A stretch of DNA of 64,000 bases from an uncultured Hormoscilla sp. (GTDB lineage: Bacteria > Cyanobacteriota > Cyanobacteriia > Cyanobacteriales > Desertifilaceae). A program made the position numbers and the translations under genes. This document shows, piece after piece, positions 12,573 through 63,359 of the stretch; the stretch's first letter is position 1, and every line of letters starts with the position of its first letter. Location: positions 3,456,001 to 3,520,000 of the forward strand of contig OZ001293.3 in the NCBI GenBank assembly GCA_963921275.4, given 5' to 3'. A model generated the notes under the pieces. That model did not search any database and was not told the origin of the DNA. It saw nothing but the letters and a program-made list of their open reading frames with translations.

Positions 12573-12574
12573 TA

Positions 12575-23123: not shown

Positions 23124-23207
23124 TCAGCCCCTCTGGTTGCCAAGCGCAAAGGGTATGTTATCCTAGAATCAACAGGTGAATGCAGGTAGTTAGAGGCAGC
23201 AGCAAAT

Positions 23208-27425: not shown

Positions 27426-29168
27426 TTTTTCGGGCCGTCCGCGGACCGTACAAGATCTCGCGATGCTGACTGGGGTGAGCATCTCCCACAGTACGCTCCA
27501 ACGCTTTGTTCAACGAGAGGACTGGTCTGAGGTAGTGCGATTCGTTCCGGCATAAGCCAGTAGGTGAAAGTCGGGTCTGGCTCTATCAGCCAGATAACTC
27601 TGGTTATCATGGGGGTTAAATTCCCTTTCCCCAGGTACGGGGGTCGAGGGTACTACCGGTCGGAGGTGCTACGGAGCCACATCGCCGTGGTACCTCCCGA
27701 GGACTTAAATGTAGGATAACTGGCAGCCTAAGCCGGTGACGCCGCTAGGAAAGATGCTAATGGTTAGAACAAGCGAACCTATGTAAACCTCGTTAACCAG
27801 AACCAGCGGAAGAAGGCTTATGCGCTTGCCCAAAAAGGGAAATGGTAGTTAGTATTAGCTCTTGCCTCTGGCTAATAACGTACTCAAAGAACTCCCGGGG
27901 TATAGTAGGAACCTAAAAGCATCGTGAAATGATACTAGGGAACGAAGTAACCTCTCGTGAGCTATCCCCATTTGGACAAGTTAGATGTAAAGCACAAGCC
28001 ACGAAGAAGAAGGATGTCCTAAGAAGCTAACGCCCAGGGTAATGCCTGTGGATATGCAGACGTAGGACGGATATGGTAAGACACCCTTGGGAAAAGTAAC
28101 CTTAATGTCACAGAACTAGGGAGAAATTCCGAAAGTACGAATTTTGGATTCAAATCTTAGCCAGGTAAAGTTCAGAGCCCTTACGAAAAGCGGAAAGCAG
28201 AATGGGGAAGATGTTAGTAAAGAGCGGCGAGTATGGTTTGCTGAACTATCCTCCGCGAACCTTCCGCAGCTCAGTACTTAAACGGTCCAATAGGATTGAC
28301 CATAAGGGGTAAAATTTCAAAGGGTAAGGGACAACGGGGGTAACCCCCAGTAATCCTACTGATGACAACAGCTTACCAACCAGTAGCCGTGTGCGGTTCC
28401 AGTCGCTCTTCAGGTTTCGCTCTTGGAGGGTTGGGGAGTGATTCCCAGCTCGACCCCGACCGAGATAGCTGAACCGATTCAGGAGCTCAGCTTGGATGGC
28501 GGCATGATTCGCCTTCGTACCGATTTTTCGGGCCGTCCGCGGACCGTGGAGGGTCAACCTGGTGAGTGGCGAGAATACAAAGCCTTAAATGTCCATGAGC
28601 AAGGCAGTGTGGCTTTCTTCAAGGATAATCAAGGGCTGCTTGAGTGGGTGAATGCCCAGCCCCTCGGGGCGCAGTTCACCGGTCTCGGAGATGGTCATGA
28701 TGGGGTGTGGAACATTTTCAGTGGTATCGGGACACCAGAACAACGTATCGAAGTGCTCGATTGGTATCACCTAATGGAAAATGCCAATAAGGTGCAAGGG
28801 ACACCGGCTCAATCCGATTTTTCGGGCCGTCCGCGGACCGTGCAGATCCGATTTTTCGGGCCGTCCGCGGACCGTGCACTCCTGTGGCGAGGGGAGACCC
28901 AGAGGGCGATTAGTTATCTGCGCCAACAGCAATGTCGGGGAGCCACAGGGTTGATCAACTACTTGAAGCACCATCAGACGCGCATCATTGACTACCAGGC
29001 TAGCCCTCCTGGCGTCGGGCCGCTGCGCGAACGGGCAGGCAGCTCGGCACTCGATTGGCTCTGGTCGGGTTGAGTCCCTGGTGAAACAAATTGGGTTAAG
29101 GGTGAAATTACCGGGGGCACAATGGCGAGCCGAGAATGTGCCGATTTTTCGGGCCGTCCGCGGACCGT
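27426..29168 (+). repeat. Five identical 24-bp inserts TTTTTCGGGCCGTCCGCGGACCGT
   Basis: At 27426-27449, 28524-28547, 28818-28841, 28852-28875 and 29145-29168, each directly after CCGA. Confidence 0.95.
27535..28461 (+). ncRNA. ORF-less group II intron (927 nt), DV degenerate
   Basis: Starts GTGCG and ends CTCGACCCCGACC. EBS1 TGCCTC (27863-27868) pairs with exon GAGGTA. Removal restores WSEV|EIAEPI. Confidence 0.9.
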
Positions 29169-29642
29169 AGGTGTTGAAGCATCGCTGTGCCTACCTGAAT
29201 GGCGCATTAGTTGCCTAATCAGACTCAGTAAATCCACTTTTGCTGAGTAAATATACTCATCGCCTAACTGAGATGCACCCCATACAACGAGCCTCTTATC
29301 TGCGATCGGGAATCAAGTCTCTGCGGATCGAGCATGACGGTCAGCTGCTGGGTAGCATCACCAGTTCCTTTGGCGTCGCTTGCTTCCCAGAACACGGTCA
29401 AACCCTACAGGCAGTCATCGCAGCCGCTGATGCGACACTTTACCGCGCTAAAGCCTCCGGGCGCGATCGGGTGATCTCAGCTTGAATATAACCATAAGTA
29501 GTCATCTATCCAATTAACAATTTTCAATTGGCAATTAACAATTTTCAATTTTCAATCCGATTAGTTGTATCGACGGGTACAAAAACAGATTTCCGACTGC
29601 GCTAAAGTCATAATAAATCGATGTAGTTCAGGCTACATAACC

Positions 29643-32524
29643 ATGCGAGTTGAGCAATTACAAGCTTTTTTAGCTGTTGCCGAAACCGGTAACTTTCAGC
29701 AAGCGGCGAGAAATTGTGGAGTGACGCAATCGACCATTAGCCGCCAAATCCAAGGACTAGAAGAGTACTTGGGAATGCCACTGTTTCACAGGGGATATTC
29801 GGCCAAATTAACTATAGGAGGAGAAATGTTCTTTAAGAGGGTCTGCAAAATCTGTCAAGAGTGGGATTCTGCCACCACCGAATTAGCTCAATTATTAGCA
29901 GGAAAACAACCAGAACTCTGTGTAGGAGCGATTCCTTCAGTTTGTGCCCATGCTTTACCGCCAGTGTTGCTCTCCTTTTGTCGAGACTACCCTCAAGTGC
30001 AGTTGCGAGTCACGTCCTTAGGGAGCGATCGGGCGCTGAAAGTGCTCAAAGACGGCATGGTTGATCTGGCGATCGTCATGCCAAATCGCTTCTTAACCGT
30101 CAGTTCCGAGATCGTAGTAGATCTGCTATTGTCCGAGCCGATCGAAGTATTAATGGCCTCGAATCACCCTCTCACCCAGTACGAACATCTGTCCTGGAAT
30201 TTATTAGCCTCCCAATCGCAAGTAGTATTTAAGGATGGCTATGGTATGGGACGCCTGGTGCAAGAAGCCTTTTTGATACAAAATCTCACCCTCAATGCCG
30301 TTTTGGAGTTAAATACCCTCGATGCCTTTCAAGCCTACATTCCGCACGACAAGTGTACTACATAAATAAAACATCGGTCTTTTTAACTCTTACAATATCA
30401 CAAATATAGGCAAATATCCAGTGCAGCGTCCCTTAAAATACCCAAAAAATTATACCAACCAACAACAACAACTTACTTGACATAAAATTACTAAAATTTT
30501 TCTATTATTGCTCAATATCAAGCTACTCAGAGGTGAAATATCTCTAAGTTATACTCATTATTGAATGTGTTTTTACATAATTTACCCTCTTGAATTTTAC
30601 GCCAGTAAATAGTACCGCGCTCCATGCTGGGGGAAAGAATTTCAGAAAGTGCAAACGCTCCTCATTAATATTTGAAATCTGTTTGTTACCGCCTGATATT
30701 TAGATAGGGATTGACTGAAAACATTTAAATATCCAAGGTAGGGTCGGTCTATCCGTCAGCGGACCTAACTGATTTTTTACTCCTGAACCTGTTCCTTTAA
30801 GTGTTTGCCTTATCTGTCGCTTTGCTACTTTATACACTAACAAAGATCAAGCCATAATTAAACCTAAAACTTCAATTCGTTTTGGAGATTTAATAAATAC
30901 ACTATCCGCAAAAAACATTGGGTCTTTAACAAACTTAAAACAACGCTCCACTTCCTGCTGCTCTATTTTATATATGTGGAGCATTTTTTCTGAATTTAGC
31001 GCTAATTTATCAAGTTGATTAGTTGCTAAAACAAAGGGTCCTGCCTGATTTTTTTATGTTGCACTTGCTCATTGACGCTCTTGTTGCTTGGACTTGATAG
31101 TGGCAAGAAGATTCTCCACTCGTGGAAATTGATTGAGTTGTTATGTCCGTTAGTTCATGATATAATGATTTTTTTAATAGCTTCTTTGCCCCTACTATAG
31201 CATCCGGGGCACAAGCAAATTTCCGACAACTTAATTCTTTTAATTTTTTTTGAGCAACACCTAAATCTTTGTCGATTTTATTCGACAAATTTTTTAGGTC
31301 TAATTCCCGACGACATCACTAGCCATCTTTGCTCTATATCTCCATAGTTTTGCTTTACTTCTAGGTAACGATATCCAAAAAGCTGATATAAAATTCTCTG
31401 TATCCGCCTCCGTGACTAACTTCTTGGCTGCTTTAATAGTAAGTGGAACTCGCCATAACCACTTAACATCACCGTTGCAAATTTTCTTGAGTATATAATG
31501 CTGCATCAGCTACCATTAATCCTGAAAAGTTGTTTTTGATGCTGAAGGAAGTTCTTTTTGGTCTGATGCATTTCCATCTCCCATTTTCATCCATAAGGGA
31601 ATACCTCCTGAACAAATCAACTGCATTGTATATTGTTTCAAATCTGGTCTCTGGTCTCTAGAGTTATTTTTATCGGGTTCAATAACTTCCACCTCTACTT
31701 CTGATGTTTTGTACTCGAACATGAAATGAACTTGAATCCTGCTGTTTCCTTTTTGATTTGAGATTTTTTTAATACCTCTAACAGGACCTCGACAAATATT
31801 TTTCCTATTGCATATAAATCATCCATAACTCTACCCAATTTATCATCATTCAAATATTCCGGTTTTACTCCAACTCCAATCAAGTGTTAAGCATGCTTTT
31901 CCCTCAAAAAATCTGGCAAACAGGTATAGCTGACACTAACCCATTAATTATCATCGCTTTAACAACTTGACCAGAGCTAATTTTCTCTGATGAGTGTTTT
32001 TCCAATCGCCGGTTAATTATCTCTTCTATTCCTATTTCATCGATGATTCCGGCAACTAATCCCAGATGATCTAGATTGGTAATTTCCATGTGCAAGTATC
32101 TGAACTTCTTTGACTTTCAATTATAACTCAATTTTGTGATTTTGAGACAGATTTTTTCAGCATCCTGAGTATAAATACTCAGAAATGCCTAAAGGTACTA
32201 CATTTGTGTTGCAAGATCAGATCGTAATACATAGCAGATTACAATTTGTCGTGCGGAATGTGGGTTCAAGGGGTAGTCCACCAAGGAGAACTGATCGCCC
32301 TGTTACCCCGATCGGCATTAATGCAGGCACGCCTTGACCCGACCCTGGCCGTCAGAGCGATCGCCTCGGGCAATCAAGAGCATATATCATCTCCACCCTT
32401 GACGAGTCAAGTGGTATTGGTCACCACCCGCGATCGACTCCAGATTCCCCCAATTGGCCATTTCCGCCAACTGGTCAAAGGGCTTTACCCACAGTTTCAA
32501 CCTCAGCTATCAGCAGTCAGCTGA
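29643..32524 (+). pseudogene. ntcB: LysR-family regulator (NtcB-like) split by IS1634
   Basis: MRVEQLQAFLAVAETGNFQQAA...VTQSTISRQIQ. The frame rejoins across the IS as LDAFQ|GVVHQGELIALLP. Orthology is assigned from recalled NtcB N-termini. Confidence 0.65.
30334..32264 (-). mobile_element. IS1634-family element, transposase heavily frameshifted
   Basis: TIRs CCTACATTCCGCACGACAA / TTGTCGTGCGGAATGTGGG, 6-bp TSD TTCAAG. NLDHLGLVAGIIDEIG, LNDDKLGRVMD and RPDLKQ motifs. Confidence 0.9.
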
Positions 32525-32649
32525 AAATTGTCAATTGACAATTGCGCGATCGTAAGTGCGGATTGCTTCGTTCAGAGCAACACAGGCGAGCGAGCGCTAT
32601 AAATATGAATAAATAAATCTACCTTCCTCAATTCTCAATTAACAATTGC

Positions 32650-33477
32650 TCAATTCTCAATTTCCAGACTCATGCCTTCCCTGGCTAGCAAGCTATCAGG
32701 AAAGACTGATTTTAATTTGGCTTCCATAAGTTCTAGAAACCGATCGTTGTGGCAGGGGTCGTGGTGACAAATTACCAGCTTCTGAACCCCAGCCGCCTTT
32801 GCCACTTCAATCCCCGTCTTCCAGATAAAATCTTTCCAGTCAGTGTTAAAGGATGGAAACCTTACGCTAACCGACTCTATTGTTGCATCGTAAATCAGTA
32901 TATTCGCGTTCCGGGCTAAATGCAGCAGACTTTTATCTAAGCGATCGGGGCGCAGTAATGTATCCGTAGCGTATACTGCTGTATTTCCCTGACAACTCAC
33001 CCGGTAGCCAGTAGCGCAATTAGTTGGGTTGAGACAGACCGTTTCAATCGCCACCTCCCCTAGGGCCAGTTCCGACTCCGGTTCCAGATCGTAAAACTTC
33101 ATATCCGACCCCATGATCCCAATTGGCACTGGGAAATTAGGCGGCAGCATCTGCTCGAACAGGCGCTGTTCCATCGAAGCCCCATTAGCTGCCGACGCCC
33201 CGTAAATGTGAAAACGATTTATCGGAATAAAACCTGAGACAAAAAACGGGAATCCTTGAATCCGGTCCCAATGACAGTGAATCAAGAATAGATGGGCTTC
33301 CACAGGCATCTGGCTGAGTAGATGCTTTCCCAGCACCCTCACACCGGTGCCCGCATCAAAGATCAAGAATTGATTAGCCACCCGCATTGTCACACAGGAG
33401 GTATTACCCCGTAGCCCATTGTCTCCCTGCCCGGGGTGGGAATCTCCCCTCGGACGAACTGGACAGTAAATTCGCAA
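32650..33477 (-). CDS. MBL-fold metallo-hydrolase (5' end appears damaged; possible pseudogene)
   Basis: GNTSCV, DAGTG, HCHWDRIQGFPFF and HHDP motifs. Confidence 0.75.
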   Translation of the reverse strand: MRIYCPVRPRGDSHPGQGDNGLRGNTSCVTMRVANQFLIFDAGTGVRVLGKHLLSQMPVEAHLFLIHCHWDRIQGFPFFVSGFIPINRFHIYGASAANGASMEQRLFEQMLPPNFPVPIGIMGSDMKFYDLEPESELALGEVAIETVCLNPTNCATGYRVSCQGNTAVYATDTLLRPDRLDKSLLHLARNANILIYDATIESVSVRFPSFNTDWKDFIWKTGIEVAKAAGVQKLVICHHDPCHNDRFLELMEAKLKSVFPDSLLAREGMSLEIEN

Positions 33478-33532
33478 TCAGCGCTCATAACATTCTTCGC
33501 CTTTTCTGGTGAAGATTTTGGCAATGCGGCTA

Positions 33533-33619
33533 CGATGTGCTCTGCGCGCTCGATGTCTCCGGAGTAGTGCGATTAGCGCTCTCCGGAGACATCGTATTCG
33601 CACTACCCATCGCACATCG
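33533..33619. repeat. Self-nested hairpin mini-elements
   Basis: Inner 44-bp copy at 33551-33594 within an outer degenerate copy. Confidence 0.75.
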
Positions 33620-33710
33620 TGTGATGGTTCATTATCTGAGCCTGCCAGTTGCTTCCTACCCGCACCCCAGCATGCTCAGACTACCGCCAGTTACTATTTT
33701 TAGCGTAGCG

Positions 33711-33828
33711 TGTTGCACATTTTGGGGATGATGCCATTGTTTGCACCAGCAAAACGTTACTGAAAGTGGCTTATAGTCTACGTTTAAGACTTATGCAAAG
33801 AGACCCATCATCCCGTCCGAAGTGCAAC
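33711..33828. mobile_element. Diverged second copy of the 113-bp MITE (opposite orientation)
   Basis: GTTGCACATTTTGGGGATGAT...CATCATCCCGT...GTGCAAC aligns with the reverse complement of 26858-26970. Confidence 0.7.
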
Positions 33829-34340
33829 TATTTTTGTGCCGCGTCAATACATTTTTTCACCAGAGGCCTCACCTCTGATATATCTTTCCAGCCGAGTATT
33901 TCAGTAACTTTTTTCTCTAAATTTTTGTAAGTTCTGAAAAGTTCGGCAATTTCATCCAACCGATGGGGTGCCACATCTTGGAGGGATTTTACCTCAGCAT
34001 AGCGCGGGTCATCGTCGGGCACGCAGAGAATTTTTTCATCCCGATCGCCCCCGTCAATCATTTCCAACATTCCTATTGGCCGCGCCGCTATCACGCAACC
34101 CGGGAAAGTGGGCTGATCCATCATCACCATACCATCGAGGGGGTCGCCATCGTCGGCTAGGGTATTGGGGACAAAGCCGTAATCGTAAGGATATTGTACC
34201 GAAGCATAAAGCACCCGGTCTAGGATCAAGGCTTGCATATCCTTATTATACTCGTACTTATTTTTGCTTCCGGCTGTGATTTCGATCAATACGTTCAGCA
34301 AACCCGGTTTTGGTTGGGCTGGTATCCGCGATAAATCCAA
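33828..34340 (-). CDS. ppa: Inorganic pyrophosphatase
   Basis: [29 protein letters not shown] and DEK motifs. TTG start after GAGGAG. Confidence 0.95.
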
Positions 34341-34621
34341 TTTAATACTCCTCGCTAACAGTAACATTCCGACCCGCGTCAGTTCAAGGCAGTCCGAGTC
34401 GGGTTTGGGGTGTCGATCTGCATGGGGTCTCGGCACCCCCAAAGCTAATTGTAGGGGAATACGTTTAACTCGAACAGGTCAAAATTCTTTCTTCAAATTC
34501 TTTCTTCAAAATTGACCACTGACTTAATATATTTTAATAGTTATATATCTTATTATTGATTAATCGATTATAAAGGGACGGGTGGTCAGGACTTACACGG
34601 CGGACATCGCTACATCTTGAC

Positions 34622-34673
34622 CACCAGTCACCAGTCACCAGTCACTAGCCACCAGTCACCAGTCACCAGTCAC
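34622..34673. repeat. Heptamer tandem repeat (CACCAGT)n, STRR-like
   Basis: About 7 units. Other heptamer arrays lie at ~19765-19797, 29510-29556, 32628-32662 and 56201-56224. Confidence 0.85.
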
Positions 34674-35299
34674 TTGATCCGTTGGTAAAGTCCCTTGGCG
34701 ATATCCAGCAGGTTGATTAATTGCTGCCATTCTGGAGCATCAGGATGGTGGCTGTTGGCCCATTCTATCTTCAGGCTTTTTTGTAGCAGATCCAGCAATA
34801 AGTCTGGAGATTGCAATTGGCCAGTCGAAATGGCCTTTTGCGGCTCCTCTGTTGGCGTTGACTCTGTGGGATCAAAGGTAGTTGACTCTGTGGGCTCAAA
34901 AGTAGTTGATTTTGTTGGTTCAAAGGTAGTTGACTCTGTCGGTTCAAAGGCAGTTTCCTTGATTTTCTGTCCTTGCTTAGCCAGATCCAGAGCCTTCTGA
35001 GATACAAGGTCTGGTAGCTTGGGGCGATCGGATAAAGAGATGCGAGATAGTTCGCCCAACAGGGAGATCACCTGCTCTACCCACTCCAGAGATGAGGACT
35101 GCCAAGCATTGGCACCACTTTGGCTGTTACCTTCCTCTTGGATGCTCTTTGCCTTTTTAGCTAGTGGTATAGCTCTTATAGAGATATTTTCTGGTAATTT
35201 GGGGAGATCTGACAGACCTGCACGAGCGATATCCCGTAACAGTTGAATCACCTGCTCTACCCACTCTCTCTCTTCTTTCTGCTTCTTCAAGTCATTCAT
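34670..35299 (-). CDS. Hypothetical protein with an internal duplication and FEPTESTT repeats
   Basis: 209-aa ORF. EWVEQVI...SD.PKLP occurs twice, followed by four 24-nt repeats. Confidence 0.65.
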   Translation of the reverse strand: MNDLKKQKEEREWVEQVIQLLRDIARAGLSDLPKLPENISIRAIPLAKKAKSIQEEGNSQSGANAWQSSSLEWVEQVISLLGELSRISLSDRPKLPDLVSQKALDLAKQGQKIKETAFEPTESTTFEPTKSTTFEPTESTTFDPTESTPTEEPQKAISTGQLQSPDLLLDLLQKSLKIEWANSHHPDAPEWQQLINLLDIAKGLYQRIK

Positions 35300-35795
35300 T
35301 TTTCACGCTAGTAGTTTTCAATATCTCAGACTCGGATATTAGGTAACTTCTCCCGACTCCACTCCAGACTGTCAGGGGACTCCAGAGCATAAAATCTTCA
35401 TTAAATCTGCTTATAATACCATTTTGAAACAAGATTGCTACAGATGGGGAGTCTGGAAGTCCCCGATGGTCCAACGGTTTCTCCGGAGTAGTGCGTAAGA
35501 GCGCTCTCCGGAGACACCGAAGATTTTGGCAATCTCAGATCGTTGCATCTCTTCAAGGTATAAGCTGTTTTTGGGATCCACCGGGCAGGCATGGGATAAA
35601 CCCTTTATTTCGGTTTGTTTGGACACCGACCCACAGCTGGCCAATAGGTGAAGGGCCGCAGTTCGATATCCTCCAGAGGGGACGCGCTACTCGCACTACC
35701 CCAGAGATATCGCCGCCTCCCATACGCTGATTTTTAATCCCATCGCGTTCCGTCTAGCCTCCCGATAGCGCTGCGCTGGGGGCGCAGCCATAGCG

Positions 35796-38700
35796 TTATT
35801 TTTCCGTCAGCTTCCAGACTCCATCCCAAGTTTCATTGGGTGGTTGGTCTTCAAACAGCATACAACGCTGTATGTGTAATTTAGCCGCCTTATTCTTCGG
35901 ATCGATGTCCAGAACTGCTTGAAACTCACCCTGGGCGTTCTCAAACGCTTTCTTCGCCTTATCCGTAAACTGCTGCTTGGCTAGCCCGATCAGTTTCCAG
36001 ATCAGAGCTTGTGACATTTCCTTGGCCTCATCGGATAACATCTGTTGGTCTTTTTCTTTAGCGCAGAACTGAAGAAGCTTAGCGGTCAACAGCTTCTTGA
36101 TCTCCCGGGGGGGAGTAAGCTTGATCTCCCGATCTGCCAAGGACTTTGTCGTGTCTCCGGAGTAGTGCGAATAGCGCTCTCCGGAGACACGGCGGGCTTC
36201 TGAAGAAGGCATCTGCTTGAGTTCCTCTAATGACAGCCGCTTGATAGCATTGGACCCTAAGATTTGCTCTAGTTGAGCTAATGACAGCTGCGAGATCGTA
36301 TCCCGTAAAATTTTATCCTTACGATCGGCAAACTCCTTCTCCTCGGACTCTGATACCTCTTCTGGCAGCTGTTCTAACAAAGATATCATCTCGTCTGAGG
36401 ACAATTTTTCCCTTGCCGGTTGTAGGTAATACTCGCGCCCTTTGTGATAGTGGTCGATCGCCTTCTGCTTTTCCTCTGGAATCGGTCGAGCCAGCGTGCT
36501 CCTGCCTGGCTGGATCCCCACCAGTTCGTATATTCTCACCGGTTCGCTTTTTCCCTTCACGGTAATAAAGTCCAGCTCCCTGACTATTAGCCGCCTCGCA
36601 TAGGGTTTATAAGTATTTTCGCTGATGACTATGTCTGTGCCATATTGCTTGCTCGTCCCTTCCAGACGAGAGGCCAGATTGACACCATCACCAATAGAAG
36701 TCAGTTCCATGCGTTTGCTGGAGCCAATATTGCCACTCACGACTTCATCGGTATGGATCCCCATGCCAATGCCGATCGCCATCTTACCCTCTGCAATCCG
36801 AGCCTCATTGAATTTCTCCAATCGCTGGCGCATGGCGATCGCCGTTTGCATCGCATACCAGGCATGATCGTTGAGGGGCGCTGGCGATCCAAACACCGCC
36901 ATCAGGGCGTCACCTATATATTTATCAAGAGTGCCCCCGTAGTGCAAGACCGCGTCCACCATTTCTTCAAAATAGCTGTTGAGCATCACCACCACTTCTT
37001 CGGCTTGCATTTTTTCCGTCAATGTGGTATAGCTGCGAATATCTGAAAACAGCACGGAGACATGCTTGCGCTTGCCTCCCAACCCCGTATCGCCACTTGC
37101 TAGCAATGCCTCTGCCACTTCTGGCGTCATGTAACGATACATCAGATTTTTGACCTGCTTCTCATCGGAGATATCTTCCATGACCACTAATGCCCCGTTT
37201 ACTTTGGTGGGGTCGCTAGCATCGGACATTGAGTTAATCGATAGATTTATACTCTGCTGTACCGTTCCGGAAAAATAGGAGTCTTTAGACAACAAAGTTT
37301 GATCTGGGTAATACTGTTGCCGTTCTTTTTCATCTAGGGGTGAGAGGGCTGCGTCAAACCATTTGCCAAAATCACCTTCCTTGAGTTTCAGCAAGTCCCG
37401 CATCAACTTACCCTCTATGAATTCGTTGGAGCCATACCCTAATAATTGCTTGGCCGATTCGTTGGCGGCCATAACGATACCCTTTTTATCCGTGGAGATC
37501 ACCCCATTGGTCAAGCTGCGCAGGATATCCTTCTGAATTTGCTCCTGCTGCTTCACTTCCGCAAACAGCTTCGCATTTTGCAGGGCTACACCGGCTTGAA
37601 TGTTAAACGCCTGCATGAATTCTTGGTCAGAACGATTAAAGCTCGCCTTCCACTGTTCCGGGGCTTTGGGCCAATCATTTGGGTCATAGGGCGGGTACTC
37701 TCCCTGTTTCTTCTTGTTGATTAACTGCGTCACCCCGATCAACTCGTCATTGGCGTTAAACACGGGCATGCACAACATACTGCAAGTGCGATAGCCTGTC
37801 TTCTGATCCGTTTGTTTGGAAGTTTCCGAACGCCCATCTTCATACAGGTCAAAGGGAATCAGCAGGGGCTGATGAGATTCCGCCACCATGCCTGCGAAGC
37901 CCGCTGTCCTGGGGATGCGGATTTCTGTTAACTTGCCTGCGATCGGGATTTTCGTCCACAGCTCATCTTTTTCGTGGTCTATCAGCCACAGGGTGCTGCG
38001 ATCAGCGTTCATCAGTTCCTTGGCCTGATCCATCACCTTTTTCAGGGTGTCTTCTAAGTCCAAACTGCTCTTGGACAGGGAGTTTACCGCGTTCATCAGG
38101 GCTGCCGCCGCCCGTTGTTTCTGGGTTGCTGCATAGAATGATTTAGAGGACTCCAGTATGAGGAGAATGGATGGGGCAAACTCTCTAAAAACTTGTTCGT
38201 CTTCTGATGTGAACCCCTCTATATCGATTTTTTCTGCCAATTCTGCGTAGGGGTACTTATCGTGCTTTAATTTATTTATCAGTTGCACAACCGCCACCAA
38301 CTCTCCTGTCTCCTCATTCAACAGGGGCATCGCTAGCATGGTGTAGGTGCGGTAGTTGTTTTTTTTGTCAAATTCCTTGGCCGCCACTGAACGGGGATCA
38401 TCATAAAAGTCGTAGGGGATATTGACCACTTTTTTCCATGTGGCCACTTCTCCGGCAATCCCTTTATCTGCTGGAATTCTAATTTCTAGAGCATTCCCAT
38501 TGTCATCCTTGGCTACAATTGTAAACAGTTCATTTTTTTCTTCATCGAACAGAAAAATGCTGCTGCGATCTGTATTTAGCAGTTCCCCCGTTTTCATGGT
38601 GATGGAACGCAACATCTCATCCAGAATTGCGTCAAACACCTGATTTTCCAGATCCAGCATCGACAGGGTTTGATTGACCGTTTTTAGTTTATCTTCTACG

Positions 38701-39005
38701 TCGGTGACAACTTGTTTGAATGTGTCCTTTTTCAGCGAGGCCATAAATTCTGAGAAACTGCCCTTGGCTGTGACTAAGGCACCCCCAGAGGATGCTTTTA
38801 GGGGCGCTGTTGAGTTTTCTACCACTTCCGGACTTTCCCTATCTATCACTGTGCCAGTCCCCTGCCCAAGGTCGCCCTGGTCTAGATGGTTGTAGTTTAC
38901 CTGTTTGGGGGCATCTTCATCAATTATTATAGTGGCAGTAGCATCCAAAGTCTGCTGATGCTGAGATGAAGCTTTCATAGATGTCACCAAGGCTTTGATT
39001 GACAA
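35796..39005 (-). CDS. GAF-GAF-PAS class III adenylate cyclase (CyaB-like)
   Basis: Two GAF domains (DKKNNYRT, DQKTGYRT), PAS, FSDIRSYT, DKYIGDALMAVFG, GDGVNLASRLE and C-terminal WDGVW. Confidence 0.93.
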   Translation of the reverse strand: MSIKALVTSMKASSQHQQTLDATATIIIDEDAPKQVNYNHLDQGDLGQGTGTVIDRESPEVVENSTAPLKASSGGALVTAKGSFSEFMASLKKDTFKQVVTDVEDKLKTVNQTLSMLDLENQVFDAILDEMLRSITMKTGELLNTDRSSIFLFDEEKNELFTIVAKDDNGNALEIRIPADKGIAGEVATWKKVVNIPYDFYDDPRSVAAKEFDKKNNYRTYTMLAMPLLNEETGELVAVVQLINKLKHDKYPYAELAEKIDIEGFTSEDEQVFREFAPSILLILESSKSFYAATQKQRAAAALMNAVNSLSKSSLDLEDTLKKVMDQAKELMNADRSTLWLIDHEKDELWTKIPIAGKLTEIRIPRTAGFAGMVAESHQPLLIPFDLYEDGRSETSKQTDQKTGYRTCSMLCMPVFNANDELIGVTQLINKKKQGEYPPYDPNDWPKAPEQWKASFNRSDQEFMQAFNIQAGVALQNAKLFAEVKQQEQIQKDILRSLTNGVISTDKKGIVMAANESAKQLLGYGSNEFIEGKLMRDLLKLKEGDFGKWFDAALSPLDEKERQQYYPDQTLLSKDSYFSGTVQQSINLSINSMSDASDPTKVNGALVVMEDISDEKQVKNLMYRYMTPEVAEALLASGDTGLGGKRKHVSVLFSDIRSYTTLTEKMQAEEVVVMLNSYFEEMVDAVLHYGGTLDKYIGDALMAVFGSPAPLNDHAWYAMQTAIAMRQRLEKFNEARIAEGKMAIGIGMGIHTDEVVSGNIGSSKRMELTSIGDGVNLASRLEGTSKQYGTDIVISENTYKPYARRLIVRELDFITVKGKSEPVRIYELVGIQPGRSTLARPIPEEKQKAIDHYHKGREYYLQPAREKLSSDEMISLLEQLPEEVSESEEKEFADRKDKILRDTISQLSLAQLEQILGSNAIKRLSLEELKQMPSSEARRVSGERYSHYSGDTTKSLADREIKLTPPREIKKLLTAKLLQFCAKEKDQQMLSDEAKEMSQALIWKLIGLAKQQFTDKAKKAFENAQGEFQAVLDIDPKNKAAKLHIQRCMLFEDQPPNETWDGVWKLTEK

Positions 39006-39264
39006 TTAATTTTATTTATATTTATTTATCGACAAATCTACTATTTGTCAAGGGTGAATGAGCTGGCTGACGACAGACTCTTCCTTAGTTTACTCTGTAA
39101 GAGTTATTTGAGTATGGGTATTAGTGTGATTTTCTGGGTCCAGATAAATGGGCTCGTTCGTGATTTTGGCATTAAAAGCATATTTATATGTGTTGTATTT
39201 TACCAGGAAGAGCCGATCTCGGCTGATGATTTAATAATTTGGCTTGCCCCCGATCGGGCAAAAT

Positions 39265-41019: not shown

Positions 41020-41291
41020 GTCAATTTTCCAACGGTCCTACCGTTCCGGAAAAATCGGACTGCGACTGGTCAGCGGGACAATTCGCGGTCGGTAGTCCGA
41101 TTGGATCTAGTACGCGGCTTCTATTGTACCACATTTTTGGCCAATTATCTCTGACTTCAGTCTAACTTCTGTACCGCTAATTTCCGCAGATCCCCAAAGT
41201 TGAAGAAAAAGTTAAGCTGCTCATTGTATTGAACATTAGCAACTTGTTACAATTGTTAACAATTGTAGCTGGCAGAGTAGATAAATATCCC

Positions 41292-43358: not shown

Positions 43359-43483
43359 GAAGTAAAAAATGAATTAAGAATCTAGGTTTCGCCTGAGCGC
43401 CCGTTTCTCATTCCCGGCGACCCCGTTGGGAATGAGATTATAGAGGCAGAGCCTCTAGTTGACAATTTGGAGGTAAAATTAGT

Positions 43484-44143: not shown

Positions 44144-44244
44144 GGACTCTGAAGCGATCGCTCGTTTCTCATTCCCGGCGTCCCCGCAGGGAATGAGATT
44201 ATAGAGGCTCTGCCTCTAGTTGACAATTTGGAGGTAAAATCAGT

Positions 44245-45280
44245 ATGGTAATAATAAATTCTCCGACTGTAGCTAGGGCGTGTCATCAATTAAGCCATAT
44301 TACAGCTGCCGCGAGGTAGATGGCACCCAAGAAATTGCGAGCCGTTTTATCGTAGCGTGTCGCCAGAGCCCTGTATTGCTTGAGTTTTTGGAATAGATAT
44401 TCAATTAGATGCCGCCACTTGTACATTTCTTCATCGTCTTCTCTGTGTTCTGTGCGGTTACTTTTTGGAGGAATGACAGCCATCCAATCCGCCTCTTTCA
44501 GGCGCTCGAGCACACGTTGTTCCGCATCATAGGCTTTATCTGCAAGCAGCGCGCCAATCTCACCGATTTTATCCAATAGCACGTCAGCGCCTTTCCCGTC
44601 GTGGGCTTGGCCAGGGGTAAGATGAAATCCTGTGGGATTGCCTTGGGCAATCGCAAGTGGCATGAATCTTTGTCGATAGTCCCCCTTTACTACGGCCTAT
44701 GGCTTGGGTTTCGCACGGATCTGAGGGTGTTTTTTTTTGCACCCGCACGCTCGTTGATGGGCACGCAGGATGGTGGCATCAATCGCGGCGTATTCGTTAT
44801 CGGCGTCTGAGGCCAAGACATCGAATACCTGCTTCCAAACTCCCTTTTCAGACCACGGGTATGGCGGGTATGAACAACCCGAAAATCCCCAAAACACTCC
44901 GGTAAATCCCGCCAGGGAATGCCAGCACGATATCGATATAACACGGCAGAACACGAATAATCTCTTGTTCTTGGCTGTAGCGCCTGGGTCACCCTCTTTA
45001 CCAGGTAAAAGGTGTTCGAACGCGTAGCGTGCGCGCAGCGCAATCCGTTCCCACTGGTCGTCTCGCAAGCCATAGCGTCTCATATCATGCCCTCTTGATT
45101 GTTATTGCTGGATAAGGACTCCATACCGTATCCATCTATTTCTGTCAAGCAATTTGATTGATGACACACCCTAATCAGGAGATCGCCGAATCTATCTTTA
45201 CATTAAAAGGCGTGACGTGGCCAACTTATCAAGCGTTAATGGCAGAGGTGGGAGACGATCTCGCTTGGAGAGTTGCTGAC
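44245..45280 (+). pseudogene. Tandem Uma2 paralog, interrupted by IS5 and truncated
   Basis: The upstream region and 5' coding sequence repeat 43402-43620 (ESIFTLKGVTWPTYQALMA). Confidence 0.75.
44276..45171 (-). mobile_element. IS5-family element, copy 4, with a 24-bp insert at 45020-45043
   Basis: Near-identical to the other copies apart from the insert, a 1-nt deletion and a few substitutions. Confidence 0.93.
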
Positions 45281-45686
45281 GCGAGGTGTCTCGTGGGAGA
45301 TACCTCGCCCCAGGAAACATCGAACTCCCCGGGGACATCAAGCGCGCAGAGCACATCTGACTGTGGTAGTTCCCATGAGAGAGGGTATCTTTCAGTTGTA
45401 TTGCAAATGATATCAAGTATTACCCTGAATATTTTCTCCTGCATCTCTTCATCTATAGCAGAATTACAAACCCTAGGATATTCGTAGTAATTGAGGGCGG
45501 TGTAGCTATCAGCGAGAGTTTCCATTGGGCTATATCAGAACTCAACTAATTCCAATAAGCCCCAAATAACTCCCCGCAGGTGCTGACTGCTGACCACTAG
45601 GTCGGCTGTCCTCGCGAAAAGCTCTACCTTACCCCGATTTTCCCTGACCATAGCCTACTACTACAGTGGCCGATCTCGAAACTGGC

Positions 45687-47132: not shown

Positions 47133-47173
47133 TTCTTCTGCGTCTCCTAATCAACTATGCACTGACAAATATA

Positions 47174-57373: not shown

Positions 57374-58558
57374 ATGAAGTGCCCGAAGTCAACCTCCCTC
57401 ACAACATCGAGTCCCAGTCTGGCATCCCTGCGGTGCGATCGCGCCTGGGTTGAAATTGAATTAACTGCCTTAGCACATAATACGCGAAAAATCAAGCATA
57501 TTTTATCACCAGGGACAGATATAATGGCCGTAGTCAAGGCAGATGCCTACGGTCACGGGGCAGTGACCGTAGCCGAGACTGTGCTAGCAGCCGGTGCTAG
57601 CTGGCTGGGAGTAGCAACTATTCCAGAAGGAATAGAACTGCGAGAAGTAGGCATTAAGGCTCCAATTCTGATATTAGGGGCTGTCAACGCTCCTAAAGAA
57701 ATCCAGGCGATCGCCCATTGGCAACTGCAACCAACCCTGTGCAACCCCAAACAAGCCTTAGTATTTTCAGAGACTTTAGCAGCAGTAGGTAAAAGTATAC
57801 CCGTACATCTGAAACTGGATACAGGGATGTCCCGACTGGGGACAGCATGGCAGGAAGCAGCAGAGTTTGCCAGACTTGTAGAGCGATTGCCTCATTTAGA
57901 AATAGCGAGCGTGTATTCCCATCTGGCCACAGCTGACAGTCCAGATCCGAGGATAATGAACCAGCAGCATCAGCGGTTCCGCCAGGCGATCGGGCTGCTG
58001 CGTGCAGCTGGCATCACCCCACCCAAGCTACATATTGCCAACTCAGCTGCTACCTTAAATGACCCCAGCTTGCATTACGATCTGGTAAGAGTCGGTTTAG
58101 CACTGTATGGTTTACATCCAGCAGCCCATCTCCAACCAGTGCTCTCACTCAAACCAGTAATGCAAGTGAAAGCGCGAGTAACGCAAATAAAAGAGATTGC
58201 TACTGGAACCGGTGTCAGCTACGGTTATCAATATATCGCCCCACGGGATATGAAGCTAGCAGTAGTGGGTATTGGCTATGCAGACGGCGTCCCCCGTAAG
58301 CTATCTTCCAAGATGCAGGTTCTTATCCGAGGTAAGCTGGTACCGCAAGTGGGAGCAATTACAATGGATCAGCTGATGCTGGACGTGAGTGCTATTAATG
58401 ATTTACAGATAGGAGAAGTGGTCACCCTCTTAGGGCAAGATGAATATATAGAAATCTCAGCAGATGACTGGGCTACCATGCTGGGGACTATTTCCTGGGA
58501 AATTCTCTGTAGCTTTAGACATCGGCTACCCCGGGTCGCCCGAGTTAGCGTCAGCTAA
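57374..58558 (+). CDS. alr: Alanine racemase
   Basis: AVVKADAYGHG, HLKLDTGMSRLG, ANSAA, GYADG, MDQ. Confidence 0.97.
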   Translation: MKCPKSTSLTTSSPSLASLRCDRAWVEIELTALAHNTRKIKHILSPGTDIMAVVKADAYGHGAVTVAETVLAAGASWLGVATIPEGIELREVGIKAPILILGAVNAPKEIQAIAHWQLQPTLCNPKQALVFSETLAAVGKSIPVHLKLDTGMSRLGTAWQEAAEFARLVERLPHLEIASVYSHLATADSPDPRIMNQQHQRFRQAIGLLRAAGITPPKLHIANSAATLNDPSLHYDLVRVGLALYGLHPAAHLQPVLSLKPVMQVKARVTQIKEIATGTGVSYGYQYIAPRDMKLAVVGIGYADGVPRKLSSKMQVLIRGKLVPQVGAITMDQLMLDVSAINDLQIGEVVTLLGQDEYIEISADDWATMLGTISWEILCSFRHRLPRVARVSVS

Positions 58559-58589
58559 AATGAGACCAGCAGGATGGCACTGCACTGCT

Positions 58590-59744
58590 ATGACTTATAT
58601 TAATCCGACATTGATAAACGAAGTCAGAGGTTTAAGACTGACTAGCGAGGAGAAACAGTACATTCTCAGTAAAATGCATCCGGCAGCCCCAGACGGTTAC
58701 AGATATGCTGATGCCGTGTTTGAAGGGGGGGCATAAAAGGCATTGCCCTGTTAGGGGTAATGCGCTGCTGCGACGATCTAGGTCTGCGCTGGCGGAAGCT
58801 AGCAGGCAGTTCTTCCGGTTCCCTCACCGCCGCCCTGCTAGCAGCCAACTTTGCCATCGATCGGCTAGAACAGGAACTGGGTGAGTTGGACTACATGCAG
58901 TTCCTCTCTCAGAAAACTAGCCCCCTGATTTTCTGTGGCGATCCACGAGATGACATGAAGTTTCCTTTCTGGATGCTGTTTTTCCTCTTAGTGACCAGAA
59001 GTTTGGGACAATATTCCTCAGAACCCTTGCACTCTTGGGTAGCCTCAACCCTGAAGTCCCGTAAGATAAAAACCTTTCGTGACCTGGAAAAGGGCGAGAG
59101 ACAACTCAAGGTAGTAGCTTCCGATATCAGTCGGCGGGAGATGCTGCTGTTACCCGACGACCTCAACCCCGCAGCGCCCAACTTGGAGAACCAACAGCGG
59201 ACTGTTCGGGAAAAGATCCTCAGATCTTACTGCCTGGAAAGTTATCTTGACTATCGCTGAAGCAGTGCGACTGTCACTGAGCATACCTCTGTTCTTTGAG
59301 CCGGGAAGACTCGGTGACTACATGATTCTGGATGGAGGGCTATTGAGTAATTTCCCCTTATGGATATATGATGTCCAGCCACAGTCCGGTCAACCGGCAC
59401 GTTTCCCCCGCTGGCCGACCTTTGGTTTCCGCTTACTGGACAATTCAACTGGACGACAATCCCAGATTAAGGGGGTGTTTGACATTTTTTCCGCCTCCTT
59501 GAGAACTATGGCCGAAGCGAGAGACAGATATCACCTGCGAGAGATCGATCGGGGCCGGACGATCGAGATAGATGTCACCAATGCTGGGGTGACCACCACC
59601 CAGTTCAACGTTAAGCCGGCGGAAAAAGCCACACTCTACCGACTGGGATACGAGTGCACGAAAAAATTTTTTCTCTCCGATTGGAATTGGTCAGAACACT
59701 TGATACAGCGTGGTTTCAGCCGTCCGATCGCCCAGGTGGCGTAG
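58590..59744 (+). pseudogene. Patatin-like phospholipase, two frameshifts
   Basis: VFEGG|KGIA, AGSSSG, SLSIPLFF and DGGLLSNFP in three frames. Confidence 0.8.
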
Positions 59745-59827
59745 CCATGGGAAAAAATTTTTAGTGAAGACCTGCCCAATTTACGATCTCGGAGCTAGAA
59801 TCTGTTATAGTAGTAATCGATAGACCT

Positions 59828-59917
59828 GGAGAGGTGGCTGAGTGGTCGAAAGCGGCAGATTGCTAATCTGTTGACGGAACTAGATTCCGTCCGAGGGTTC
59901 AAATCCCTCTCTCTCCG
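59828..59917 (+). tRNA. trnS: tRNA-Ser (GCT)
   Basis: GGAGAGGTGGCTGAGTGGTCGAAAGCGGCAGATTGCTAATCTG, a long variable arm, then GGTTCAAATCCCTCTCTCTCCG. Confidence 0.96.
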
Positions 59918-60255
59918 TTCAATCCTAGGCAAACTCTGGTCAGGGCGATCACATTTGCCACCGGCAGGCGATCGCCCTGATTTGAGATGCTGTGCTCAAG
60001 ACATACTTCACAAAATTACAAGGGTGCCCTGTAAAATTGTATGATACCAAATCAGATTAATTATCCATGTTGAGGCGGAGAGCTGATACAAGCATGGGCA
60101 GAGGCAACGAACAGCTGCGATACTTGTTAGAGGGCGCGAGTGACTTATTTGGGATTATCGATCTCGATGGAAAACTGCTCTATGCCAATCAGGTATGGCG
60201 AGAGGTTCTAGGCTATAGTGAAGCAGAACTGTCGGGGATTTGCTTTTTTGACCTA

Positions 60256-62344
60256 GTGCTATGACCATTGGTAGTGATAAACATGTAATGATGGCACAAC
60301 TAACCCGACAAGCATTTGTTGTAATCATGCACAAAATACCAAATCGCGTGATTTTCTTCTTAGAGAATGATAATGTTTTCCGAACCAAGCGACTAATTCT
60401 TTGCCTCGTTGTTTAACCTTTCAATATGATTAGTTTTTCCAGTTTCTTTACCTACCGCAATAGTAACGCTTTTTCGGTATTGTTATATGCTTCCCAAAAA
60501 GTAAAAAACCTCGTCGATAAACAGGAAGTAAATATTTTCACAATTTTTTTGCAGAGACTGCGATCGCCCAACTCCTACAATTGTTTTTGTATCAAGTGCC
60601 AATGTTTGTTTTCTTTATTCCCAAGACCACATTTCATCACAAGTCAATTTTCCTTTGGGCTTGTCTGAAACCTTTAGATCACGGCAGATTTTTTATTAAC
60701 GTTTGTGAAACCTTTACTCGACGCGCAATACCTGCCTATTCTTTCAAGTAATAGCTCATCTATATTCTTTTTCTTTTCGGACGATACCGGCTGTCGGGTT
60801 TTTAATTTATTGCCGATTTTTTACATATTTTTGCTTTTTATTATGAGTACTACCATTTTTTACTGTTCGCTCACAATTACAATAAGGGCAATTGGGTCGC
60901 GACGATGATGATGTGTTCATAAGTCTATACTCGCTTTTGACTAATAACATAAGAGCATTTTTCTGATGAGCTATACATGAGAATATTTTATCATTGCTAT
61001 CAATTTGGCTAAGATAAAGAGCTGTTATATCATTCCTAAGAAAAGTAAGGATTAATACAGGGATGGAATGTTCTATCACTACATATTTTACCAATACCTG
61101 ACCATTTTTATTTGACGGATAGACATAAAATAGATAATATAGAGATTTGCCCCTCAAATGACTTGCCAGTCCCATGCCAAAAAAGAAGTACATCGTCACG
61201 CTCACTCCGTCGGAGCGTGACGCATTGTCCCAACTGACTCGTTCAGGTAAAGCAGCTGCCTATAAAGTTAATCATGCTCGGATCGCGGTTGTTAGCAGAT
61301 ATCAACCAAGACAACGGCGGTTGGACTGATTGCCAGATTAGCGAAGCCCTAGATATCAGTCAGGCCACCATTGAGCGGGTACGGCTTCGTGGAAGAAGGT
61401 GTGGAAGCCGCATTAAATCGCCAACCTCGTAGTCAGAACAAAAAGCGTCGCTTGGATGGAGAAAAAGAAGCTCACCTCCGGAGCTTTGGCCTGTTCATCT
61501 CCCCAGAGGGTCATGCAGGCTGGACTATAAGATTGTTAGCCGATAAACTGGTGGAATTAGAGTTAGTTGAATCTATTTCCCCTGAGACAGTGCGACAGAC
61601 ATTAAAAAAAAACGCTCTTAAGCCTTGGCTCAATAAGTCATGGGTGATTCCACCAGAAGTAAATGCGGAGTTTGTTTGTCAGATGGAGATGTGCTTGATG
61701 TCTACACTCGTCCCTACGACCCTGACTATCCTGTAATTTGCGGGAGATGAAACAACTAAGCAATTAGTTTTTGAAATCAAACAGCCTCTGCCACCAGACA
61801 AGAGCCAATATAACCGAAAAACTCCTGGTCAGATAGAGCGATATGACTAGGAGTACAAACGTGAAGGTGTTTGCAATTTGTTCATGGTTTTTGAGCCTTT
61901 TGCGGGTCAAGGTCATGTTACGGTTACAGACCAACGTACAGCTATTGCGGCCCGCCCATATTATGCAGAATGTAGTAGATGTTTTCTATCCTGATGCTGT
62001 CAAAATTATTGTTATTCAAGATAACCTTAACACTCATACGCCCGCTTCTCTTTACAAGGCTTTTAAGCCAGCTGAAGCTAAACGCATTCTGGAAAAGTTA
62101 GAGTTTCACTATACCCCCAAGCATGGCAGTTGGCTGAATATGGCTGAAATTGAGTGAGCGTGTTTTAGCGAGGCAATGCTTAGATTGTCGAATTCCAGCC
62201 TCTGAAAACTTTACTTCAAGAGGTGGCCGCTTTTCAACAGCGCCGCAATCAGGATTCTGGTCCTGTTAACTGGCGTTTCACCACTGAAGATGCTCGGATC
62301 TTACTGTTACGGCTCTATCCATCAATATAAAGTGGTCAAAGCAC
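60256..62344 (+). mobile_element. IS630-family element, degraded transposase
   Basis: Ends TA-GTGCTATGACCA / TGGTCAAAGCAC-TA. WTIRLLA, QDNLNTH and TPKHGSWLNMAEIE motifs. Confidence 0.9.
60270..61098 (-). mobile_element. Degenerate IS1-family element inserted in the IS630 left TIR
   Basis: Near-identical to 55270-56083, with 8-bp TSD TGACCATT. Confidence 0.88.
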
Positions 62345-62457
62345 TAGTGCATTGGGAAAGTCGCCCAGGTTTCCTCGAAGCATTCCAGTCTGTGCAAGCT
62401 AGCGATGGGGGTCATCACCTGGAACTGACCCTGATGGCCTCCGATGGGAAGCAGATT

Positions 62458-63359
62458 GTGCGATTCGTTCTAGTCTAACGTGGTCAAACACGGAACGCTA
62501 GCCTAAGAAATTAGGAACTCTGGTAATCATGGGGGTTGAATTCCCCTTCCCCAGGTACGGGGGTAACACCGGTCCTCAGTGCTGCGGAGTTACATCGCCG
62601 TGGTGTGGAGCGAGGACTTAAATGTAGGATAATTGGCAGCCTAAGCCGGTGATGCCACTAGGAAAGATGCTAATGGTTAGAACAGGCGAACCTATGTAAG
62701 CCTCGTTATCTCAAACCAGCGGAATAAGGCTTATACGCTGGCCCAAAAGGGAAATGGTAGTTAGTACTAGTTGTATTTTGTGGCTAATAACGTACTCGAA
62801 GAACTCCCGGGGTAAAGTAGGGGCCTAAAAGCATCGTGAAATGATACCAGGGAACGAAGTAACCTCTCGTGAGCTGTCCCCATTTGGACAAGTAAGATGT
62901 AAAGCGTAAGCCACGAAGAGGAGGGATGTCCTAAGAAGCCAACGCCCGGGGTAATACCTGTGGATATGCAGACGTAGGACGGATATGGTAAGAAGTCTTT
63001 GGGAAAAGTAGCCTTAATGTCGCAAAACTAGGGAGAAATTCCAAATAGTAGGAATGTTGGATTAAAATCTTAGCCAGGTAAAGTTCAGAGCCCCTACGAA
63101 GAGCGGAAAGCAGAATGGGGAAGATGTTAGTAAAGAGCAGTAAGTATGGTTTGCTGAACTATCCTCCGCGAACCTTCCGCAGCTCAGTACTTAAACGGTC
63201 CAATAGGATTGACCATAAGGGGTAAGGGACAACGGGGGTAACCCCCAGTAATCCTACTGATGACAACAGCTTACCAACCAGTAGCCGTGTGCGATGAAAG
63301 TCGCATGCACGGTTTCGCTCTTGGAGGGTTGGGGAGTGATTCCCAGCTCAACCCCGACC
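62458..63359 (+). ncRNA. ORF-less group II intron (902 nt), intact DV/DVI
   Basis: GTGCG start, DV AGCCGTGTGCGATGAAAGTCGCATGCACGGTT, end ACCCCGACC. EBS1 ATTTTG (62775-62780) faces exon CAGATT. Confidence 0.92.

Follow-up and report, generated by a model that had tools for sequence, protein, structure and literature searches.

Introns that carry no open reading frame (ORF) can spread through a bacterial genome when the proteins of related introns act on them. In Thermosynechococcus elongatus, ORF-less TeI3 introns were shown experimentally to be mobilized in trans by TeI4 proteins (PMC2882425, Mohr, Ghanem and Lambowitz 2010). Here we describe what looks like the same arrangement on a much larger scale, in the genome of an uncultured Hormoscilla sp. 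The analysis started from a 64,000-nucleotide (nt) stretch of its DNA (G000:C1:3456001-3520000, called the window throughout), which holds five ORF-less group II introns of about 0.9 kb, and followed these elements through the whole genome.

The likeness to TeI3 and TeI4, which are group IIB1 introns (PMC2882425), extends to several points. In both genomes the ORF-less IIB introns outnumber the ORF-bearing ones, the families are told apart by their diverged exon-binding sites (EBS), the fit between these sites and the intron-binding sites (IBS) of the exon is good, other introns and insertion sequence (IS) elements are among the targets, and the helper has reverse transcriptase (RT), X and En domains. 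The scale, however, is different. By the account given in PMC2882425, 17 of the 28 T. elongatus copies are ORF-less, they fall into six families, and the introns make up 1.3% of the genome; the corresponding figures here are 289 ORF-less copies (about 17 times the T. elongatus number), about 35 guide variants and 5.0%. The same account names high temperature as one factor in the proliferation, whereas there is no indication of thermophily in the present host, and it describes few introns in genes, whereas about 43% of the sites here span an ORF on either strand. There are also differences in the introns themselves. Their 3' ends are CC, CU or AU, in contrast to the uniform A plus pyrimidine of TeI3/TeI4, and two lineages have an aberrant domain V, unlike TeI3/TeI4.

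The published maximum for a prokaryotic genome is the 101 group II introns of Arthrospira platensis (Miura et al. 2022, PMC8919778), which is described there, much as we would describe the present genome, as a cyanobacterial explosive increase of chloroplast-like-type introns with ORF-less copies included. The ORF-less copies counted here come to about three times that figure, although the counting methods differ and the two numbers are not strictly comparable. Trichodesmium erythraeum likewise has many group II introns, some of them within other introns, according to PMC4649490, but far fewer, with 24 per chromosome in the tally of PMC8919778. A last parallel concerns targeting. For IIB1 and IIB2 introns, Monachello et al. 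2021 (PMC8643678) describe a Watson-Crick pair between exon position -14 and the base that lies two positions upstream of EBS2. The introns studied here have this pair too, but follow the rule less strictly than the EcI5 selections of that work.

The mechanism is known from Thermosynechococcus; the scale is what is new. A limited literature search brought up no bacterium with group II introns in the hundreds, and the present genome has about 290 full-length ORF-less copies together with several dozen ORF-bearing ones. The roughly 250 independent integration events with known guides could be used to refine the design rules of targetrons, namely those for EBS1, EBS2, EBS2a, EBS3 and mismatch tolerance. 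A bacterium that tolerates an intron load splitting its ordinary genes also bears on the idea of introns overrunning the early eukaryotic genome, and the lineages with an aberrant domain V pose a testable question on trans-acting catalytic RNA.

The five window elements and their boundaries

Five-way alignment and repeat finding show that the five elements are homologous, with a mean column identity of 74%. The copies at 50046 (minus strand) and 53430 are 99% alike, and the latter is identical to at least 11 other copies in the genome. The copy at 62458 has a guide pair found in no other copy (EBS2 TCTCA, EBS1 ATTTTG, EBS3 A); it is the closest relative of family C, to which copy 27535 belongs, yet its domain V is intact. 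The elements had first been proposed, from the letters of the window, as a family of ORF-less group II introns beginning with GTGYG, and this has stood up well. Four copies begin with GTGCG and the minus-strand copy with GTGTG, and GTGCGATTCGTTC, with 338 exact matches, is the most frequent 5' end genome-wide. The proposed coordinates proved to be exact as judged by empty paralogous sites and by an uninterrupted orthologue in a sister species, both of which place the 3' end of the introns 4 nt past a conserved ACCCC. Terminating the introns at GAC or AT, where the Rfam model ends, would have made all five copies intergenic and is ruled out by the empty sites. With the corrected boundaries, excision reopens a reading frame across the junction in four of the five copies. 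At least one candidate empty paralogous site exists for 90 of the 289 genome copies, and these sites, together with the sister genome (G001), show that the insertion junctions are exact and free of target duplication.

The window copies terminate in CC (GACC or ATCC), and other families in GACT or TAAT. An A-plus-pyrimidine 3' end with a bulged branch A 7-8 nt upstream was found in none of the window copies; a candidate branch A lies 9 nt from the 3' end, and the folds did not resolve a bulge. The covariance model RF00029 matches three of the five copies above its gathering score of 40 bits, at 54222-54298 (+), 50048-50124 (-) and 63280-63358 (+), with the scores given in Table 1. The domain V and domain VI that the original prediction had assigned to all five copies are thus recognized by the model in three; copies 27535 and 51737 can be aligned with these from end to end and show blocks of altered letters in domain V. 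A second model, RF01999 (group-II-D1D4-2), gave weak matches to three copies at 22 bits, below its cut-off of 36.

The absence of an RT gene from the elements was likewise borne out, since none of the genome's 93 RVT_1 and 75 GIIM matches falls inside the window. At 871-936 nt, the elements are shorter than an ORF-bearing relative, which has about 2.5 kb. A free-standing HNH ORF at 56584-57081 was considered as a helper remnant and rejected, as its similarity amounts to 33% identity over 52 amino acids (aa), in the HNH motif.

Guide-target pairing

Each family of these introns has a 5'-exon consensus that is the complement of its own EBS1 and EBS2. The fit was quantified over 247 unique insertion sites, with G-U pairs counted and with the guides of mismatched families as the chance level. 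EBS1 pairs with IBS1 (-6..-1) at 5.1 of 6 positions with the copy's own guide and at 2.7 with those of other families (99 sites score 6, 107 score 5, 24 score 4 and 17 lower); for EBS2 and IBS2 (-13..-8) the values are 4.1 and 2.2. When the 35 families were permuted with balanced weights, none of 10,000 shuffles reached the observed value for either guide. The covariation first suggested from the window is therefore a property of the whole population, and the idea that the elements are readily reprogrammed fits the approximately 35 guide variants found.

Within the window, the pairing counts made for the original prediction were reproduced. EBS1/IBS1 scores 6, 6, 5 and 5 of 6 in four copies, and 4 of 6 in the minus-strand copy that had been left unscored; EBS2/IBS2 scores 5, 4, 5, 5 and 5 of 6. 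One detail had to be revised: EBS2 had been taken as a hexamer facing -13..-8, but the pairing is 5 bp long (-13..-9), and the first letter of the hexamer is a spacer.

Two further contacts became visible in the genome-wide alignment. EBS3 is a single alignment column in domain I, 40 nt downstream of EBS1, and forms a Watson-Crick pair with exon position +1 in 29 of 35 families (G-C in 6 of 6, T-A in 18 of 21, A-T in 5 of 8), where the next-best column reaches 20 of 35. EBS2a, the base two positions upstream of EBS2, is Watson-Crick paired with position -14 in 26 of 34 families, against 8-14 of 34 for neighbouring exon positions. Neither value was reached in 100,000 permutations. Among the 14 families with an EBS2a other than T, the pair holds in 10; in the large families that do have T, taken site by site, A stands at -14 in only 125 of 229 cases. 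In EcI5 this pairing is, as PMC8643678 reports, essential for DNA integration and dispensable for splicing, and its conservation in the ORF-less copies argues that they may have been selected for mobility, now or recently.

The position of the guides also speaks for the original prediction. EBS1 sits in a hairpin loop, which is 9 nt long in 34 of 37 representatives and is closed by an 8-bp stem; all eight stem positions vary in the type of pair, and each of them is base-paired in 34-36 of 35-36 cells. EBS2 is found in single-stranded sequence on the 5' side of a conserved hairpin.

Table 1. Positions of the introns, their guides and domain V, and the interrupted kinase gene, in window coordinates
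Feature	Position	Strand	Evidence
ORF-less group II intron, 927 nt, family C (16 genome copies)	27535..28461	+	alignment, empty sites
Copy 27535, guides	EBS2a 27794; EBS2 27796-27800; EBS1 27863-27868; EBS3 27903	+	
Copy 27535, domain V, aberrant	28385-28416	+	
ORF-less group II intron, 871 nt, family A (137 genome copies)	50046..50916	-	RF00029, 44.4 bits
Copy 50046, guides	EBS2 50656-50660; EBS1 50588-50593; EBS3 50553	-	
Copy 50046, domain V, canonical	50090-50121	-	
ORF-less group II intron, 936 nt, guide family EBS2 ATAAG / EBS1 ATTTGC (6-7 genome copies)	51737..52672	+	
Copy 51737, guides	EBS2 52002-52006; EBS1 52068-52073; EBS3 52108	+	
Copy 51737, domain V, aberrant, with an extra private change	52596-52627	+	
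ORF-less group II intron, 871 nt, family A	53430..54300	+	RF00029, 46.4 bits
Copy 53430, guides	EBS2 53686-53690; EBS1 53753-53758; EBS3 53793	+	
Copy 53430, domain V, canonical	54225-54256	+	
ORF-less group II intron, 902 nt	62458..63359	+	RF00029, 44.3 bits
Copy 62458, guides	EBS2 62709-62713; EBS1 62775-62780; EBS3 62815	+	
Copy 62458, domain V, canonical	63283-63314	+	
Hybrid sensor histidine kinase gene (HisKA, HATPase_c, REC, REC, Hpt), three introns inside	49770..55211 (start approximate)	+	

The genome-wide population

The host genome has 7.03 Mb and 47.4% G+C, and its main contig holds 4,738 copies of GCGATCGC. By pairing family-specific 5' and 3' end motifs, we counted 289 full-length, non-nested ORF-less copies of 780-1010 nt. 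RF00029 has 151 matches in the genome, from 150 of the 867 candidates scored. Together, representatives of all guide variants account for 352,598 bases at 492 loci, all of them on the main contig; this makes up 5.0% of the genome and counts only sequence of the ORF-less type. The copies comprise 35-37 combinations of EBS1 and EBS2, and the biggest families have 137, 70-71, 15-16, 8, 8 and 6 members. Divergence between families is 25-29%. Within them it can be very low: the mean pairwise identity is 99.8% in family A, whose 137 copies include 61 identical ones and have 114 distinct 20-nt flanks, and 99.7% over about 71 copies in family B. Relatives of copy 53430 are present in all four other species of the genus, the best of them at 92% identity, and a search of other genera of the family gave one short weak match in one of nine genomes. 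The spread of family A is thus recent.

Five copies in 36 kb had been called a high density. The density is indeed high when set against the genome mean of one full-length copy per 23.8 kb, but it is not unique, since 15 of the 289 spans of the same length, each starting at a copy, hold at least five.

The 289 copies represent 247 unique insertion sites as judged by their flanks. When a site is said to span an ORF if an ORF of at least 40 aa lies on each side, 71 of 246 unique sites do so in sense and 49 in antisense orientation, 14 in both and 140 in neither. Random positions span an ORF in 32% of cases per strand and in 55% on either strand, compared with the approximately 43% of insertion sites on either strand. 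Insertion is therefore only mildly depleted from genes, and the sense bias is weak. A clustering of insertion sites near the 3' ends of genes was a product of wrong boundaries and was not found. In family C, 12 of the 16 copies lie in unrelated sequence, and the other four share one flank inside a multicopy ISKra4-family element.

Further features of the introns were seen elsewhere in the genome. Family A forms head-to-tail arrays with zero bases between the introns, three of them at G000:C1:5447656-5450268 and two near 6052391-6054133 (minus-strand offsets). The arrays would fit re-insertion at an occupied site, where the first G of the resident intron can wobble-pair with the T at EBS3. Family B is present at one identical site inside at least eight ORF-bearing introns, forming twintrons, for example at G000:C1 1057197, 2406916, 3087390 and 4451357 (offsets). 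Finally, a 13-nt word that resembles the intron 5' end but begins with GTTCG occurs 155 times genome-wide; it may belong to another repeat family or be a variant intron start.

Helper genes

An RT encoded elsewhere in the genome had been postulated, and candidates are plentiful. Two ORFs among the 75 GIIM and 93 RVT_1 matches, 590 and 588 aa long, combine RT and maturase with an HNH motif. Similarity to the 590-aa RT-X-D-HNH protein was detected in 104 ORF pieces; 48 of these align over at least 380 aa, and 20 are near full-length RT-X-D-En ORFs, all of them outside the window. Among solved structures, the helper is closest to chain C of 6me0, annotated as 'Maturase reverse transcriptase' (E 2.5e-109), which we take to be from the T. 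elongatus complex.

The ORF-bearing introns have the same 5' end motif as the ORF-less copies. When the five window copies were compared by blastn with one ORF-bearing intron of 2,506 nt, similarity was confined to domain I and domains V-VI, at 72-88% in short stretches, and no remnant of the ORF was found in the window copies. The strong matches to ORF-less families at helper loci turned out to be ORF-less copies nested in the helper introns. Several helper ORFs are interrupted by family A copies, which has left truncated RT genes.

Interpretation and alternatives

The five elements are very probably group IIB introns of the chloroplast-like/IIB1 type, non-autonomous and ORF-less, from a population of at least 289 full-length copies that is retargeted through its guides and mobilized by a helper. 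Since ORF-less TeI3 introns are mobilized by TeI4 proteins in the experiments of PMC2882425, the present copies would be expected to splice and to move in trans with a permissive helper. Each copy would be transcribed and excised as RNA, and the RNA would be bound by the reverse transcriptase-maturase-endonuclease of an ORF-bearing intron elsewhere in the genome. Reverse splicing would then take place into DNA where the target pairs with EBS1, EBS2, EBS2a and EBS3, followed by copying into DNA. Mutation of the guides would create lineages with new target preferences, giving the approximately 35 seen, and within a lineage the tolerance of one or two mismatches would give access to many ectopic sites, genes included. 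In the window, three copies, one of them antisense, would in this way have hit and inactivated one histidine-kinase gene.

Several observations weigh against this interpretation. Even with E values of up to 10 allowed, RF00029 has no match in copy 27535 or copy 51737, and when domain V was classified genome-wide by folding energy and motif, it was aberrant in 41 of the 289 copies (in two forms) and truncated or deleted in 3 more. On the side of the helper, many genes are truncated or interrupted; ORF-bearing introns do exist in the genome, but among the 48 helper loci none is a close ORF-bearing parent of the ORF-less families. Splicing is not obviously selected for, because the insertions have no strong orientation bias (71 sense versus 49 antisense). 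Four sequencing runs were compared with 52700-55200, one being an RNA library (X1, a metatranscriptome) and the other three of undeclared kind. A contig in X1 joins 53429 directly to 54301, omitting 871 nt with the ends GT..CC. It differs from the window by about 4-6%, that is, it comes from a relative about 95% identical, and it may be an intron-free allele of this relative, so that it confirms the boundary and not splicing. X1 has no cover over the intron at 53430-54300, and the depths in the other runs are sums over contigs that do not serve as copy numbers.

An alternative is a fossil swarm, in which the copies would be relics of a past burst and neither those of the window nor their families would still splice or move. 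It could draw on the kinase gene hosting three of them, which is dead anyway, with an antisense copy and a frameshift, on the RNA-library contig, which does not demonstrate splicing in this strain, on the disrupted domain V of copies 27535 and 51737, and on the many broken helper ORFs. We regard this as improbable. The near-identity of families A and B, set beside a nearest family A relative in a sister species at only 92%, makes the burst younger than the species; a canonical domain V is kept in 245 of the 289 copies, and 20 helper ORFs are near full length. A spread at the DNA level, with the introns as passengers of other repeats or copied by recombination or segmental duplication in place of reverse splicing, could be read from the four family C copies (27535 among them) that share a flank in the ISKra4-family element, from the family B copies at one identical site in at least eight ORF-bearing introns, and from the shortfall of 247 unique flanks for 289 copies. 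This is already largely refuted and we give it very little credence, since the 247 distinct flanks each fit their own guides, the junctions are exact with no target duplication and no common flanking DNA, and 12 of the 16 family C copies lie in unrelated sequence.

A third possibility is that no helper RT is involved at all and that the elements are protein-independent, RNA-guided ribozymes similar to HYER. HYER ribozymes are reportedly derived from ORF-less group IIC introns, and the lack of an ORF, the ribozyme core conserved in most copies and the reprogrammable guides would all suit such a role. New DNA copies, however, require reverse transcription; helper genes are abundant in the same genome; the introns are IIB with EBS2 and EBS3, not IIC; and the conserved EBS2a/-14 pair is tied to an RT-stabilized integration complex in the analysis of PMC8643678. 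We therefore think this very unlikely too. That the guide-exon matches of the five window copies arose by chance might be entertained from the window alone, where hexamers with G-U allowed pair at 2.2-2.7 of 6 by chance and some of the ten scores are as low as 4 of 6. The genome-wide data leave practically no room for it, since the observed pairing was reached in 0 of 10,000 and 0 of 100,000 permutations and the target consensus sequences of the families are the complements of their guides; the chance reading is refuted. The helper-mobilized, guide-retargeted IIB introns thus remain the explanation that we favour.

Domain V variants

Domain V divides the window copies into two groups. Copies 53430, 50046 (minus strand) and 62458 look splicing-competent, and copies 27535 and 51737, with an altered catalytic domain V, are probably not. 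Compared with shuffled sequences, the domain V fold has z values of -3.6 in 62458 and -3.2 in 53430, and offers no gain over shuffling in 27535 (+0.4) and 51737 (+0.9). The first aberrant type, which includes copy 27535 and all of family C, is represented by 26 copies with 23 distinct flanks and 10 guide variants. Its lesion, a block of six letters, affects the lower helix on the 3' strand and leaves only four base pairs beside the AGC triad, and family C also has UCCA instead of the GAAA loop. The second type, to which copy 51737 belongs, is altered in the 5' strand and has 15 copies with 14 distinct flanks and 3 guide variants; a private change in copy 51737 unpairs the triad. In a tree of 37 family representatives (effectively unrooted and with no support test), the first type is scattered over several branches.

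Flanks were inspected for the second type in full (15 copies) and for the 16 members of family C, and they match the guides of the copies concerned. The domain V lesions seem to predate further spread and retargeting of both lineages, because the aberrant copies sit at many distinct, guide-matched flanks and only 4 of the 16 members of family C are carried along by the ISKra4 element. The options are a working variant helped by protein, complementation in trans, or patchy gene conversion among copies. That the two lineages kept spreading and, if catalysis was abolished, did so with domain V function supplied in trans, is in our view an unlikely scenario. Such help would come from the more than 240 intact relatives or from their helper protein, and, if true, this would be a bacterial step towards a shared trans-acting machinery for splicing and mobility, a role that has been proposed for U6 when the spliceosome arose.

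Host genes at the insertion sites

Copy 27535 sits in sense orientation in an ISKra4-family transposase gene, the two halves of which match positions 53-159 and 181-369 of the NF033572 profile. Its excision fuses 116 aa and 203 aa in frame, and the site has at least seven empty paralogues with exact boundaries.

Three copies lie in the histidine-kinase gene. The orthologue in sister genome G001 (locus L007) is one ORF of 929 aa, in which the four 'exon' pieces are exactly adjacent at 79-87% identity, so that all three insertions are younger than the species split. Copy 50046 (minus strand) is antisense in the N-terminal part of the gene, and its flanks abut exactly in L007 (681|682). Copy 51737 is sense and stands immediately before the ATPase N-box; excision fuses 47 aa and 165 aa in frame across the HATPase_c motif. 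Copy 53430, also sense, lies between the two receiver domains, and excision fuses 86 aa and 303 aa in frame. The sites of the two sense copies are empty in L007. In addition, the frame of the gene shifts by +1 near 51611-51620, about 110 nt before copy 51737, at the HIP1-like palindrome GATCGCGCGCGATC; at this point the sister-species orthologue has unrelated letters, one fewer in number. With the antisense intron and the frameshift, the gene is dead in this genome.

Copy 62458 either precedes a PAS-domain ORF or lies within the 5' part of this ORF, and an open frame of 84 aa upstream of the copy matches no family.

Other features of the window and genome

The window also holds other repeats. 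An insertion sequence of about 886 nt is present in four 99%-identical copies (890-1775, 5960-6838, 11690-12575 and 44273-45173) and in a diverged fifth near 13393-13823; its two short ORFs match DDE_Tnp_1 and DUF4096, as in an IS4/IS5-type transposase in two frames. A repeat of about 0.8 kb has two 96%-identical copies 5 kb apart (55269-56074 and 60269-61088), which bracket alanine racemase, patatin-like and tRNA genes, and the ORF of the repeat has only a weak match to an IS1/IS1595-type zinc motif. At 5046-5223 there is a tandem array of about six 30-nt units, each with a small palindrome and with no spacers between them. The stretch at 20777-23956 has periodic repeats of 69, 138 and 207 nt with one GCGATCGC (HIP1) site per unit and looks like an internally repetitive coding region.

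Two genes of the window, a PAS-GAF-GGDEF gene (25534-27013) and a patatin-like gene (58760-59744), are each frameshifted into two or three overlapping ORFs, which may be pseudogenes or the result of indel errors in the assembly. Elsewhere in the assembly, contig C3 (31.4 kb) stands apart with 17.6% G+C, compared with 42-49% in the other six contigs, and may be foreign DNA or contamination.

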